In this document: piece by piece, positions 8,236-10,323 of the stretch
Numbering within the stretch: the stretch's first letter is position 1
How the letters are laid out: each line of letters opens with the position of its first letter
UHGV virus genome: UHGV-1840329
Source of the DNA: a virus
Reading direction: 5' to 3' (one strand)
Length of the DNA: 10,323 bases
Program-made: the position numbers and the translations under genes
The notes under the pieces: model-generated
Told to the model about the DNA's origin: nothing
The model's database searches: none
Seen by the model: only the letters and a program-made list of their open reading frames with translations

Positions 8236-8878
8236 GAAATACACACTAATCTATGCAGATCCACCCTGGGTATACCGGGACAAAGCCGCAGATGGTAATC
8301 GCGGTGCCGGTTTTAAATATCCGGTTATGAGTGTGCTGGATATCTGCCGCCTTCCTGTGTGGGATTTGGCCGATGAAAACTGTCTGTTGGCCATGTGGTG
8401 GGTGCCAACACAACCACTCGAAGCACTAAAAGTTGTTGAAGCCTGGGGATTCCGTCTGATGACGATGAAGGGCTTCACGTGGATAAAATGTGGTAGTCGA
8501 CAACCAGATAAACTGGTTATGGGTATGGGACACATGACTCGCGCCAATAGTGAAGATTGCCTGTTTGCGGTAAAGGGAAAACTACCTACGCGCATTAATG
8601 CAGGGATCGTTCAGTCATTTACCGCACCGCGGCTTGAGCATTCAAGAAAGCCAGATATCGTTCGTGAAAAACTTGTGCAATTATTAGGCGATGTTTCTCG
8701 CATTGAACTGTTCGCCCGCCAGACGTCTCATGGCTTCGATGTTTGGGGTAATCAGTGCGAAGACCCGGCAGTGCAACTACACCCTGGATACGCGTTGGAT
8801 ATTGGCGGATTAACAAATGCATTCAGCAATGCTCCGCTGTCACCAACAGACATCCAGGGGCGGGAGCGTGCTGCATGA
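8228..8878 (+). CDS. N6-adenine DNA methyltransferase, MT-A70/phage Dam-like family
   Basis: N-terminal LIYADPPWVY (DPPW catalytic motif) followed by conserved aromatic-rich blocks. ATG at 8228 is preferred over the track GTG at 8216 because GGGGTGG lies just upstream. No restriction endonuclease partner is evident in the window. Target sequence cannot be inferred. Confidence 0.8.
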   Translation: MTKKYTLIYADPPWVYRDKAADGNRGAGFKYPVMSVLDICRLPVWDLADENCLLAMWWVPTQPLEALKVVEAWGFRLMTMKGFTWIKCGSRQPDKLVMGMGHMTRANSEDCLFAVKGKLPTRINAGIVQSFTAPRLEHSRKPDIVREKLVQLLGDVSRIELFARQTSHGFDVWGNQCEDPAVQLHPGYALDIGGLTNAFSNAPLSPTDIQGRERAA

Positions 8879-9069
8879 ACAGGGCATCACCAGCAGATTT
8901 AAGAAAATGCCTTGAAACTGCAAACATGCTTGCACACAGCGGGATCAGGTTTGTTCCAATTCCCGCTGTCACTGATGCTGAATTTGCAACACTGTCAGCA
9001 ATATTCGAAAACAAAATTGAATCACTGGCAGCAGAAGCAGAGATGGAAGAAAATCAGCAGAACTATTAA
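8875..9069 (+). CDS. Small hypothetical protein (64 aa), coupled to methyltransferase
   Basis: ATG at 8875 overlaps the methyltransferase stop as ATGA, with GGGAG 8 nt upstream. The track ORF from 8755 overlaps the methyltransferase in another frame and is probably too long. Acidic C-terminus. No family recognised. Confidence 0.45.
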   Translation: MNRASPADLRKCLETANMLAHSGIRFVPIPAVTDAEFATLSAIFENKIESLAAEAEMEENQQNY

Positions 9070-9072
9070 ACG

Positions 9073-10323
9073 TTATTCCCCCGCCATCCACTTCTCAAAC
9101 TTCGACGGGGAGAACGGAATCAGATCCGTATGCTCCCCGTCAATCCATGAATCAATCATATCGGCCCACTGCTGCAACATGTAGGCGCGCTGTCTGGCGT
9201 ATTCCGCTTTGTTATATACGGCGCGCACACCTTTCTGCTCATGTGCCAGAGCCTTTTCAATCCAGTCTGAAGGATAACCAGCCTCATGCAACAACGTACT
9301 GGCTGTACGGCGCATATCATGTACAGTGAAGTCCTGAATATGCTCACCATCTTCATTTATTATTTTCACCGTTCTGTCGATCAGAGAGTTCAGCGCGGCA
9401 TTAGATAATGGCTTCCGGAAATTGTAACGACCAGGAACCAGATATTCACTTCCACCAGCGCACATCTGCAACCCGACCAATATATCCTGTGCCTGTTTAG
9501 GCAGGTAAATAACGTGCGCCCGGCTTCCCTTCATGCGGTCTGGAGGAATTGTCCATGTCCATTTTTTAAAATCTATTTCATCCCACGTTGCATTGGTGAA
9601 TTCGCCCTTACGAACCATAGTGATAAGCACCAGTTTTAAAGCCATTTTCATAGTGCCCATAGCACCAATGGCATCCAGCGTGCGGAAGAACAGGCCAATT
9701 TCTTCTGGTGTCAGTGTTCGCTCTCGTGGTTTAAATATGGCGATAGACGAAGGTTTAATGTCAGCCGCAGGATTAAACAAACCATGACCACGGTCATTGG
9801 CGTGACGGTATACGCTACTGATGATCTCCCTGGCCTGCACTGCTGTTGCCCGGCCACCGCGTTCGACAATCCGGTCACACAAATCACGAACCATCGATGT
9901 GGTAATTTCAGCCATCATTTTATTGCCAAGAACCGGAAGTATGTCACGGTCGATCACCGCCTGTTTCATTGCGCGGGTACTGTCAGCCAGGATGACGTGT
10001 TTCATATAACTGTCGGTATGTACCGCAAACGTCTCGGCACCACGAATCTTTTTGATACCGTCACGTTTAGCCGCAGCCGGTGACTGGCCTGCTTTAAGCA
10101 GCTTCTTTGCAGCAATCAGTTCTTCTCGCGCTTCTGCCAGGCTGATACCGTCACGCCCATACTGCCCGATTACCAGTGTTTCGCGGCGACCGTTGATACG
10201 GTAGTCATAGCGAAACGAGACCGTGCCTGACGTAAGCACAGCTACATACAGCCCGTCACGATCGGAAACCTTGTACAGTTTGTCCTGCGGCTTGAGGTTT
10301 TTTAATTTTGTATCGGTAAGCAC
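9073..10323 (-). CDS. int: Tyrosine integrase, P4-like family (N-terminus truncated by window end)
   Basis: 416 aa open to the window edge; the first in-window codon is GTG, so the true start probably lies beyond 10323. N-terminal arm-binding-like region (LTDTKLKNLKPQDKLYKVSDRDGLYVAV) and a C-terminal catalytic region with HDMRRTASTLLHEAG and a downstream Tyr (RAVYNKAEY), typical of tyrosine recombinases. Confidence 0.9.
   Translation of the reverse strand: MLTDTKLKNLKPQDKLYKVSDRDGLYVAVLTSGTVSFRYDYRINGRRETLVIGQYGRDGISLAEAREELIAAKKLLKAGQSPAAAKRDGIKKIRGAETFAVHTDSYMKHVILADSTRAMKQAVIDRDILPVLGNKMMAEITTSMVRDLCDRIVERGGRATAVQAREIISSVYRHANDRGHGLFNPAADIKPSSIAIFKPRERTLTPEEIGLFFRTLDAIGAMGTMKMALKLVLITMVRKGEFTNATWDEIDFKKWTWTIPPDRMKGSRAHVIYLPKQAQDILVGLQMCAGGSEYLVPGRYNFRKPLSNAALNSLIDRTVKIINEDGEHIQDFTVHDMRRTASTLLHEAGYPSDWIEKALAHEQKGVRAVYNKAEYARQRAYMLQQWADMIDSWIDGEHTDLIPFSPSKFEKWMAGE

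Follow-up and report, generated by a model that had tools for sequence, protein, structure and literature searches.

Where an integrase gene and an operon of recombination genes are transcribed toward each other and end 3 bp apart, do the two transcripts regulate one another, or do they simply meet? We addressed this question in a prophage segment of 10,323 nucleotides (UHGV virus genome UHGV-1840329; this whole stretch is the window referred to below), in which such a junction lies beside the integrase gene, int.

Source element and gene layout

The window corresponds to the left arm of a Uetakevirus prophage, of the phiV10/epsilon15-like kind, that is integrated at the guaA 3' end. Escherichia coli Combat2C1 is 100% identical to the window, carries the same int/DUF1382 junction as annotated, and has guaA beside int. 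Phages of the phiV10 type share 98 to 100% DNA identity across positions 7525 to 10323, and the phiV10 annotation has the identical junction between p32 and p31. Among complete E. coli genomes, approximately 10% contain the int-proximal segment; the 3' end of int was present in 549 E. coli genomes, with the DUF1382 junction also present in 373 of these. Homology to the window stops at 9073 or 9084 in about one-third of the E. coli carriers, and the slot abutting int in other E. coli prophages holds a NinI-like phosphatase gene or Ant. The features of the locus are listed in map order.

5013–5032, plus strand: predicted intrinsic terminator after the repressor gene (4408–4992), an 8-bp stem with 6 GC pairs followed by TTTTATTGCC
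5050–5126, plus strand: pL-like promoter (TTGACA at 5084–5089, 17-nt spacer, AATTAT at 5107–5112) with flanking operator-like palindromes
5146–9069, plus strand: early-left operon of about 4 kb with several ATGA gene overlaps
5146–5298, plus strand: small open reading frame (ORF), early-left operon
5286–5600, plus strand: gp36-like gene, early-left operon
5597–6496, plus strand: YqaJ exonuclease gene, early-left operon
6506–7528, plus strand: RecT gene, early-left operon
7578–7826, plus strand: gene for an AlpA-family winged-helix protein (82 amino acids, pI 9.7; Pfam PF05930, PDB 8c3t, PHROG 66)
7823–7939, plus strand: 38-amino-acid membrane ORF, early-left operon
7936–8235, plus strand: PerC-family gene, early-left operon
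8216–8878, plus strand: MT-A70 methyltransferase gene, early-left operon
8875–9069, plus strand: DUF1382 gene (Pfam DUF1382, E = 1.8e-30), last of the operon and a variable cargo slot
9070–9072: 3-bp gap (ACG) that separates the convergent stop codons and is a mosaic joint as well
9073–10323, minus strand: int, a P4-type tyrosine integrase gene targeting the guaA 3' end (416 amino acids; its GTG start is the exact end of the window)
9102–9143: conserved hairpin in the 3' coding end of int (GACGGGGAG...CTCCCCGTC, inner 5-bp stem, no U-tract)

The operon appears to be under repressor control. Palindromes of the form TTACC-N5-GGTAA flank the pL-like promoter (5050–5064 and 5112–5126) and occur three more times at 4288–4352, between the repressor and cro-like genes; their equivalents in epsilon15 are annotated repressor-binding sites. 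Prediction of this promoter at 5084–5112 (TTGACA-17-AATTAT) agrees with an earlier, sequence-only reading of the locus, which had a pL-like promoter driving the operon toward int. The terminator at 5013–5032 is predicted to keep repressor transcription from reaching the early-left operon, within which no plus-strand terminator was predicted, and the ATGA overlaps suggest that its genes may be translationally coupled.

AlpA-family protein

Assignment of the 7578–7826 product to the AlpA family, likewise proposed in the earlier reading for a gene of the plus-strand operon, held against three resources: Pfam PF05930 (24.2 bits, cut-off 21), PDB entry 8c3t ("AlpA family phage regulatory protein," E = 1.8e-11), and PHROG 66 ("excisionase and transcriptional regulator," 2e-16). 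NCBIfam contained no specific model for either the AlpA-like or the DUF1382 protein. The gene lies on the strand opposite int, inside the operator-flanked operon, and is not cotranscribed with int. Homologues of the protein are encoded convergently on int in 28 related loci, and their identity to the window protein tracks integrase identity (Spearman rho = 0.77, P = 2e-6). Because of this linkage to int and a divergence that follows the guaA-targeting integrase lineage across proteobacteria, the protein is most likely the recombination directionality factor (RDF, or excisionase) for the adjacent integrase; the excisionase label in epsilon15 is an annotation only.

Two other roles were considered for this protein. 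AlpA of Pseudomonas aeruginosa is an antiterminator (PMC7969949, PMC9371919), a precedent by which the AlpA-like protein could drive termination-resistant pL transcription through int. The two proteins have their name and a small DNA-binding fold class in common, and the operon holds no internal terminators against which the idea could be judged. However, a PDB sequence search (E ≤ 10) returned 8c3t and chance matches, with the P. aeruginosa AlpA-RNA polymerase complexes absent; the gene sits in mid-operon rather than upstream of a terminator; and its tight linkage to int favors the RDF role. We rejected antitermination, which would be extremely improbable, for want of sequence support in the PDB search. 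The second role, activation of int by the AlpA-like protein, had been suggested in the sequence-only reading by analogy with CP4-57, in which AlpA reportedly raises intA expression. This suggestion found no support, since Int and the RDF repress int in both of the studied analogues, P4 and KplE1 (PMC2951348).

Integrase and attachment site

The int product has Arm-DNA-bind_3 (PF13356), Phage_int_M, and Phage_integrase domains (Pfam E values of 3.9e-20, 5.8e-12, and 1.4e-19, respectively), and its translation contains the R..HxxR..H..Y pattern (TMVRKGE, HDMRRT, LAHE, and AVYNKAEY), which identifies it as a P4-type integrase. The gene is at the prophage edge, codirectional with guaA, and it starts 192 bp downstream of the guaA stop codon. 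As had been anticipated, its promoter falls outside the window, which stops at the int GTG start, and attL is outside as well. A distance of 190 bp separates the 5' end of int from the attP core, attgagtgggaatgatt (PMC9782041). Both the core and the guaA target have been demonstrated for ZX5, phiV10, and epsilon15 (PMC9782041); the ZX5 genes put to the test were int, the repressor, and the antirepressor only.

Upstream of int, attP and attL share an identical arm sequence that includes a phage-borne intrinsic terminator, AACCCTCTGTTTTTACAGAGGGTTTTT. Three copies of GGTGACGGTAT, which are putative arm-type Int sites and are repeated in both arms, bracket a conserved TATACT, with the conserved GGTGACGGTAT and ATACCGTCA repeats around this motif placed 40 to 70 nt upstream of the int start. 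These att-arm blocks are kept in 14 relatives at a mean column identity of 74%. A scan for consensus sigma-70 promoters upstream of int in the lysogen was blank, and we therefore do not claim a mapped int promoter: TATACT is a candidate -10 element that has no acceptable -35 element, and its conservation could stem from the Int-binding motif alone.

Convergent junction and its conservation

The DUF1382 ORF (64 amino acids, overlapping the MT-A70 gene before it at ATGA) ends with TAA at 9067–9069 on the plus strand, and the int stop codon occupies 9073–9075 on the minus strand, so the 3-bp convergent gap described earlier is real. No other convergent junction in the same 49.5-kb region is as tight; the rest measure 23, 29, 38, 90, and 218 bp. 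In phiV10, the oac and tail fiber genes also converge, with a gap of 12 bp. The layout at int has already been described for other phages and is ordinary. A single 3-bp gap is little proof alone, and its recurrence in 28 of 34 relatives, next to different neighbor genes, adds weight.

These 34 relatives range from E. coli to beta- and alphaproteobacteria, with int identities of 30 to 100%. A convergent neighbor abuts or overlaps int throughout the set, with a median gap of 3 bp and a gap of at most 20 bp in the 28 loci just mentioned. In distant relatives alpA itself neighbors int, with gaps of -26 to +53 bp where it is adjacent, and the order guaA, int, and convergent alpA runs through the whole integrase lineage. 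Among the 33 elements scanned for terminators, 27 lacked any terminator-like match and three more had weak matches inside int only, at -112 to -140; we discarded the latter, which overlie conserved YNKAEY codons and have poor stems. Junction terminators rated good were present in the remaining 3 of the 33 (epsilon15 and two relatives, L027 and L008), those of epsilon15 and L027 being operon sense. Given the tight gaps and the presence of terminators in just 3 of 33 elements, epsilon15 among them, overlapping convergent transcription is probably common in this integrase lineage and not obligatory; the epsilon15 and L027 terminators show that antisense read-through is not a conserved requirement.

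The survey bears on whether the junction reflects compaction and nothing else, i.e., whether the gap is the product of tight packing and a recombination joint, with Rho quickly ending both transcripts and neither influencing the other. The mosaic breakpoint in E. coli populations falls exactly at the int stop codon; the slot is filled by many different cargo genes; the convergent oac/tail fiber junction of phiV10 leaves 12 bp; and the RNA past 9069 contains a C-rich, rut-like stretch. Packing on its own nevertheless predicts less well an abutment that survives deep divergence of int (30 to 100% identity), and the other convergent junctions in the prophage and its neighborhood are wider (23 to 218 bp). 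We consider this explanation very unlikely to suffice.

Transcription across the junction

The earlier description of a junction without an intrinsic terminator was confirmed twice: no intrinsic-terminator-like site was predicted on the plus strand from 5032 to 10089, and a scan of both strands from -200 to +250 nt around the int stop codon was empty. An Rfam scan of the whole window (E ≤ 1) gave a chance Phe_leader match over the repressor terminator only and left the junction blank. The plus-strand RNA beyond 9069 is untranslated, C-rich, and G-poor (28 C versus 14 G in the first 78 nt). By default, this transcript would be expected to end inside int through the action of Rho. The hairpin at 9102–9143 shows modest covariation; it was ruled out as an intrinsic terminator because a U-tract is absent on both strands. 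Two minus-strand terminator-like sites, at 8190 and 8082, were given no weight in placing the 3' end of int mRNA; the overall tally of such sites (10) did not rise above that expected from shuffled sequence (7.1 ± 2.5). A literature search for transcriptome or antisense studies on Uetakevirus or epsilon15 found nothing relevant.

Could this arrangement act as a regulatory switch, in which polymerases from pL or antisense RNA silence int after induction, int transcription damps leaky expression of the operon and RDF in the lysogen, and the AlpA-like protein activates int as in CP4-57? Intrinsic terminators are absent in both directions here and, as noted, from 27 of 33 relatives; abutment or overlap is retained despite changing neighbors, with alpA overlapping int by up to 26 bp in distant relatives; the 9102–9143 hairpin is conserved; and a candidate int promoter that lacks a -35 element could be activator dependent. 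Set against these points, epsilon15, L027, and L008 have good junction terminators and yet the same module, the C-rich untranslated RNA favors early Rho termination, int is repressed by Int and the RDF in the two studied analogues (PMC2951348), and variable C-terminal tails of int suggest that overlaps arose through drift. Moreover, excision needs Int along with the RDF, and strong interference upon induction would thus be counterproductive. Convergent-promoter interference switches, of which coliphage 186 pR/pL is an example, consist of two active facing promoters with no terminator between them. Here, the predicted pL-like promoter is approximately 5.2 kb from the int promoter region, far above the classic cases, and only the pL-like side is predicted. 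Regulation of int by colliding transcription is plausible but unproven, and the full switch seems unlikely.

A proposed model for integration and excision

The reading that we favor, and consider likely, treats the region as the module for site-specific recombination of a temperate podophage of the phiV10/epsilon15 type, integrated at the guaA 3' end, in which int is uncoupled from the operon, the AlpA-family protein is the putative excisionase, and the antisense overlap is a by-product of packing. In this model, int would have a weak promoter of its own within the att arm, where the GGTGACGGTAT copies bracket TATACT; such a promoter would free int from the phage repressor, and int would probably limit its own expression, as it does in KplE1 and P4. 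The excisionase would be produced only upon removal of the repressor, so that the direction of recombination, integration versus excision, would be set by RDF supply rather than by coregulation with int. Transcription of the induced operon would enter the 3' end of int in the antisense direction for some distance, there being no intrinsic terminator at the junction, and would probably be halted by Rho or by polymerase collision. It could trim int expression during lytic growth, as a by-product of compact mosaic packing and not as the main switch.

Alternatively, the lineage-wide scarcity of terminators and the frequent int/alpA overlap could mean that convergent transcription is selected, not incidental. 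Abutting or overlapping terminator-free 3' ends may then have been kept across the guaA-targeting lineage, in phages and GIsul2-like islands, for a convergent-transcription toggle that works by polymerase collision or by 3'-overlapping RNAs. In such a toggle, active int would hold the RDF down in the establishment and maintenance phases, an active RDF operon would do the same to int after excision, and the 9102–9143 hairpin might be a processing or pause element. We regard this extension as distinctly doubtful. Regulation of int by convergent overlap, if real, would mean a further cis-acting level of control over the choice between integration and excision in a common E. coli/Salmonella prophage family and in resistance islands at the same guaA site. 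The present value of the favored reading lies mostly in annotation: the AlpA-like gene is a probable excisionase gene, int is predicted to escape control by the repressor, and the scheme to which the module conforms is that of KplE1/Phi24B and not that of lambda. Corrected annotation along these lines bears on the prediction of prophage stability and the engineering of phiV10-type reporter phages.

Comparison with known systems

Within the phiV10/epsilon15 group, the window shares the AlpA-PerC-MT-A70-DUF1382 gene order, the convergent int with its 3-bp gap, the attP core, and the guaA target. It has separate YqaJ and RecT genes, as does epsilon15, whereas phiV10 has one fused ORF; the epsilon15 operon ends in a different gene, with 154 bp and a terminator between it and int. 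The genomic island GIsul2 likewise integrates at the guaA 3' end, at GAGTGGGA, which is contained in the core of the window phage, and its alpA follows int (PMC9376610). GIsul2 is not a phage but an island that carries genes for replication and transfer. Overexpression of GIsul2 alpA made mobilization readily detectable, an effect that the authors explain by a larger supply of excised circular intermediates (PMC9376610) and that is indirect evidence for the excisionase role proposed here. On the basis of the common target and the int-alpA loci, we infer that the GIsul2 integrase is probably homologous to that of the window; a tblastn search of plasmids with int returned many P4-type integrases and no clear GIsul2, so this link stays inferential.

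Lambda resembles the window in that control of the integrase and RDF is separated and a repressor-controlled early-left operon holds the recombination genes and the RDF. Lambda int, however, is codirectional, downstream of xis, read from pL, and retroregulated by sib; the int of the window is convergent and has no sib-like site, there being no intergenic space, terminator, or Rfam match beyond it for a lambda-type RNase III site or terminator. The difference from lambda that had been pointed out for this locus is therefore genuine, with int on the opposite strand.

P4 int/Vis and CP4-57 intA/AlpA also pair a P4-type integrase (Arm-DNA-bind_3 plus catalytic domain) with an AlpA/Vis-family partner, and expression of P4 int is reduced by both Int and Vis (cited in PMC2951348). 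In KplE1/HK620 and in Phi24B, int is driven by a promoter of its own at att, and repressor/pL control governs the RDF (PMC2951348, PMC3064807). KplE1 (CPS-53), HK620, and Sf6 share with the window an int at the edge that is read inward from att and an RDF that is not cotranscribed with it and whose expression controls excision (PMC2951348; Panis et al., 2010), and the putative Int sites of the window phage would likewise fall across the stretch expected to hold its int promoter. The window differs from KplE1 in that its target is a protein gene, guaA, not a tRNA gene; neither its Int nor its RDF is closely homologous to the KplE1 counterparts, IntS and TorI; its RDF operon reaches the int stop codon; and its promoter and autoregulation are only candidates. 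In the Stx phage Phi24B, int runs opposite to its lambda counterpart and is free of CI control, and xis stays under pL/CI (PMC3064807; Fogg et al., 2011); since xis retains the lambda orientation, it converges on int. Phi24B has other integrase and Xis families and another att site, and its int expression was measured in lysogens. Overall, the window module matches the layout of the KplE1/Phi24B/P4 type, with int next to att and outside the repressor-controlled operon.

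Results

The plus-strand early operon and the integrase gene (int) converge in the window almost without a spacer. A 64-aa plus-strand ORF (8875-9069) ends in TAA at 9067-9069, and the 416-aa integrase ORF on the minus strand (9073-10323) has its stop codon at 9073-9075, leaving three bases, ACG, between them; the ORF list and the raw sequence both bear out the 3-bp convergent gap described in the sequence-only reading. Both are real genes: Pfam DUF1382 covers the whole of the 64-aa ORF (E=1.8e-30), and Pfam identifies all three domains of a P4-type tyrosine recombinase (arm-binding, central and catalytic) in the integrase. 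The claim that no terminator separates them also held, with a consensus scan finding no terminator-like site on the plus strand from 5032 to 10089 and a separate scan of our own finding no terminator on either strand within -200 to +250 nt of the int stop.

Comparison with relatives indicates that tight, terminator-free abutment is a lineage-wide habit, not an accident of the window genome. Across 34 elements, the stop codons of int and of its nearest convergent neighbour were a median of 3 bp apart, and 28 of the gaps were 20 bp or less; junctions overlapped in 11 (-4 to -26 bp), and the widest gap was that of epsilon15 (154 bp). A convincing hairpin with a T-run was found at the junction in only 3 of 33 scanned elements (epsilon15 and the relative's locus L027, both in the operon sense, and locus L008, in the int sense), with weak terminator-like matches only, inside int, in three further elements. 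It is these tight gaps and scarce terminators, set against gaps of 23, 29, 38, 90 and 218 bp at further convergent junctions within the same 49.5 kb of E. coli Combat2C1, that argue for a habit. Since a good terminator insulates int in epsilon15, the arrangement is not indispensable. The regularity makes a real transcriptional-interference or antisense layer at the int/operon junction somewhat more interesting, but we consider such a layer unlikely.

Genes abutting int in relatives encode DUF1382, a NinI-like phosphatase (2 bp), Tyrion gp28 (4 bp), a Dam-like methyltransferase (overlapping stops, TTAA), MT-A70, small coiled-coil ORFs, Ant (31 bp) or AlpA. The DUF1382 junction is present in 373 of 549 E. 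coli carriers of the int 3' end; in the remainder, homology to the window ends at 9073 or 9084, which makes the int stop a mosaic joint (window 9070-9084). In these carriers, about a third, another gene abuts int, such as that for the NinI-like phosphatase or Ant (loci L054 2469-2501 and L055 2481-2484).

The features of the operon and of the junction are as follows.

4288-4352: palindrome TTACC-N5-GGTAA, three copies, between the repressor gene and a divergent cro-like gene
4408-4992: repressor gene, followed by a terminator at 5013-5032
5050-5064 and 5112-5126: palindromes TTACC-N5-GGTAA, on either side of the pL-like promoter site
5084-5112, plus strand: promoter-like site (TTGACA, 17-nt spacer, AATTAT)
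To 9069, plus strand, in order: small ORF, gp36-like gene, YqaJ exonuclease, RecT, AlpA-family protein, 38-aa membrane ORF, PerC-family protein, MT-A70 methyltransferase, DUF1382 gene
9102-9143: hairpin inside the int 3' end, 33 nt beyond the last operon stop

The five palindromes are probable operators of the two-helix-turn-helix repressor, and the equivalent epsilon15 sites are annotated as repressor binding. Because the promoter-like site lies between such palindromes and is followed by densely packed, in places overlapping, genes to 9069, a pL-like, repressor-controlled operon is a reasonable label, and the pL-like promoter proposed earlier is upheld as a prediction.

Several operon genes merit comment. 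The 38-aa membrane ORF (7823-7939) is identical to phiV10p35, overlaps both the stop of the AlpA-like gene and the start of the PerC-family gene, and lacks annotation in the RefSeq record of an identical E. coli genome. The YqaJ-type exonuclease and RecT are separate genes in the window (5597-7528) and in epsilon15, whereas a single fused RecE-RecT ORF is annotated in phiV10 (L001 6244-8004), evidently a module exchange between phages otherwise 98% identical. The PerC-family protein (7936-8235), encoded in the early operon between the recombination directionality factor (RDF) and methyltransferase genes, also has a weak match to ANR-family negative regulators (23.6 bits, under the cut-off of 32) and could regulate host or phage genes.

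The AlpA-like protein (7578-7826, plus strand; 82 aa, basic, pI 9.7) is a candidate excisionase. Its claimed family membership was supported by Pfam PF05930 (24.2 bits, threshold 21), by the PDB structure 8c3t, titled "AlpA family phage regulatory protein" (E=1.8e-11), and by PHROG 66, annotated as "excisionase and transcriptional regulator." A search for integrase relatives in genomes taken one per species yielded 47 loci; guaA lies directly upstream of int on the same strand in nearly all with sufficient flank, and an AlpA-like homologue lies downstream of and convergent on int in 28. Identity of these homologues to the window protein declines with int identity (Spearman rho 0.77, p=2e-6). 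In enterobacterial prophages alpA is separated from int by one to five cargo genes; alpA itself meets int in Edwardsiella, Oceanimonas, Chromobacterium, Aquitalea, Cupriavidus, Aromatoleum, Caulobacter and Phenylobacterium. Such linkage and codivergence are characteristic of an integrase and its cognate RDF, and this comparative evidence is the strongest for the proposed role. Published work on GIsul2 is in line with this pairing. GIsul2 likewise inserts at GAGTGGGA, within the guaA 3' end, and carries int then alpA; its mobilization was readily detectable on alpA overexpression, which the authors attributed to more excised circular intermediates (PMC9376610). In beta- and alphaproteobacterial elements behind guaA (loci L018-L042; e.g., L028 5179-5427 and L019 5229-5480), the AlpA homologue runs directly up to or into the 3' end of int (-26 to +53 bp); such elements resemble GIsul2-type islands whose integrases are of one lineage with those of epsilon15/phiV10 phages.

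Window 7525-10323 is 98-99.6% identical to phiV10-like phages (phiV10, phiv142-3, ZX5, and O157 typing phages 9 and 10), and for the int part identity to epsilon15 and to the Salmonella relatives of that phage is ~81%. A 2.1-kb int-proximal segment (8200-10323) matches the Combat2C1 chromosome at 100% and was found in 554 of 5426 complete E. coli genomes; the left-arm proteins as far as the repressor also have 100% identity to those of Combat2C1, where the whole prophage (~40 kb) lies between yfgI and guaA, with int on the guaA strand and starting 192 bp beyond the guaA stop. Experiments have demonstrated integration of ZX5 at the guaA 3' end, and the same target has been reported for phiV10 and epsilon15 (PMC9782041). 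The window's left end (1) falls inside a gene, and ORF 285-923 corresponds to an Ea22-like gene (285-944) annotated in RefSeq as a pseudogene.

The attP core, attgagtgggaatgatt, is found 190 bp upstream of int, and the core-to-int stretch, identical in phage and lysogen, includes a strong predicted intrinsic terminator, AACCCTCTGTTTTTACAGAGGGTTTTT, that would insulate int in both states, against read-through of guaBA (lysogen) and against the lysis operon (phage). Beyond the window, attL/attP (Combat2C1, L003 11124-11320; phiV10, L001 10799-11110) carries the phage's own copy of the last guaA codons along with this terminator, so the guaA 3' end and terminator would be replaced on integration. 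It also holds three copies of GGTGACGGTAT and two of TCATT(T/C)CTATTCA flanking the terminator, both kept in 14 relatives and probably Int, RDF or IHF sites.

The window's right end (10323) is exactly the GTG start codon of int, which cuts off the int promoter and attL and agrees with the earlier placement of that promoter outside the window. About 120 nt separate the phage-borne terminator from this GTG. A phylogenetic footprint of 14 relatives gave invariant blocks upstream of int, CGGTA..GTGACGGTATTACC, GGTATACTC and inverted ATACCGTC, and a further copy of GGTGACGGTAT is found 222 bp away in the opposite att arm, as is typical of arm-type Int sites, here putative. TATACT (TATAAT in epsilon15) lies between the two proximal GGTGACGGTAT copies; no acceptable -35 accompanies TATACT, and a promoter scan upstream of int reported no promoter.

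Discussion

Rho causes polarity of untranslated RNA and suppresses antisense transcription. On this basis, operon RNA is predicted to end by Rho within the 3' part of int, unless the phage modifies RNA polymerase, for which this analysis found no evidence. Plus-strand RNA beyond 9069 is untranslated and C-rich (28 C versus 14 G in the first 78 nt; C/G above 1.1 over ~280 nt). Int-sense RNA past the int stop is less C-rich over ~480 nt, and terminator-like sites on the int strand at 8190 and 8082 were not above chance. The strong hairpin at 9102-9143 has an outer stem of 9-11 bp (GACGGGGAG/CTCCCCGTC) and a 5-bp inner stem, falls in conserved codons and has no U-tract. Enterobacterial relatives keep this hairpin with a few compensatory changes; its outer helix is 85% paired, four pairs are doubly changed, and covariation was higher than in any of 500 shuffles or any slid control. 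It may act in pausing, processing or stabilization of a 3' end, or be a by-product of the conserved codons.

The sequence-only reading was thus correct in its observation, and its interpretation is supported only in part. We think it fairly probable that this is a standard module of att-int and convergent RDF operon, in which repressor-controlled RDF synthesis would set the direction of recombination, the 3-bp gap would reflect compact mosaic packing, and antisense read-through from the operon would be limited and probably ended by Rho. An interference or antisense layer is the less likely of the two readings.

The suggestion that AlpA activates int has a precedent in CP4-57, where AlpA is reported to activate intA (cited in PMC3064807 and PMC9376610). 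AlpA homologues have since been treated as excisionases, and the RDFs of P4 and KplE1 reduce expression of int (PMC2951348). AlpA of P. aeruginosa is an antiterminator (PMC7969949, PMC9371919); a PDB sequence search gave no sequence support for that role here. KplE1 Pint overlaps attL and is repressed by both Int and RDF, as in P4 (PMC2951348), a paradigm that the window-type att arm fits, with the int promoter itself inferred. The module does differ from lambda, as had been pointed out, but the layout is not new: in KplE1, HK620 and Sf6, int has a promoter of its own at attL and RDF supply governs excision (PMC2951348), and in Phi24B, int has the opposite orientation to that in lambda and is independent of CI, and xis keeps the lambda orientation under pL/CI (PMC3064807).
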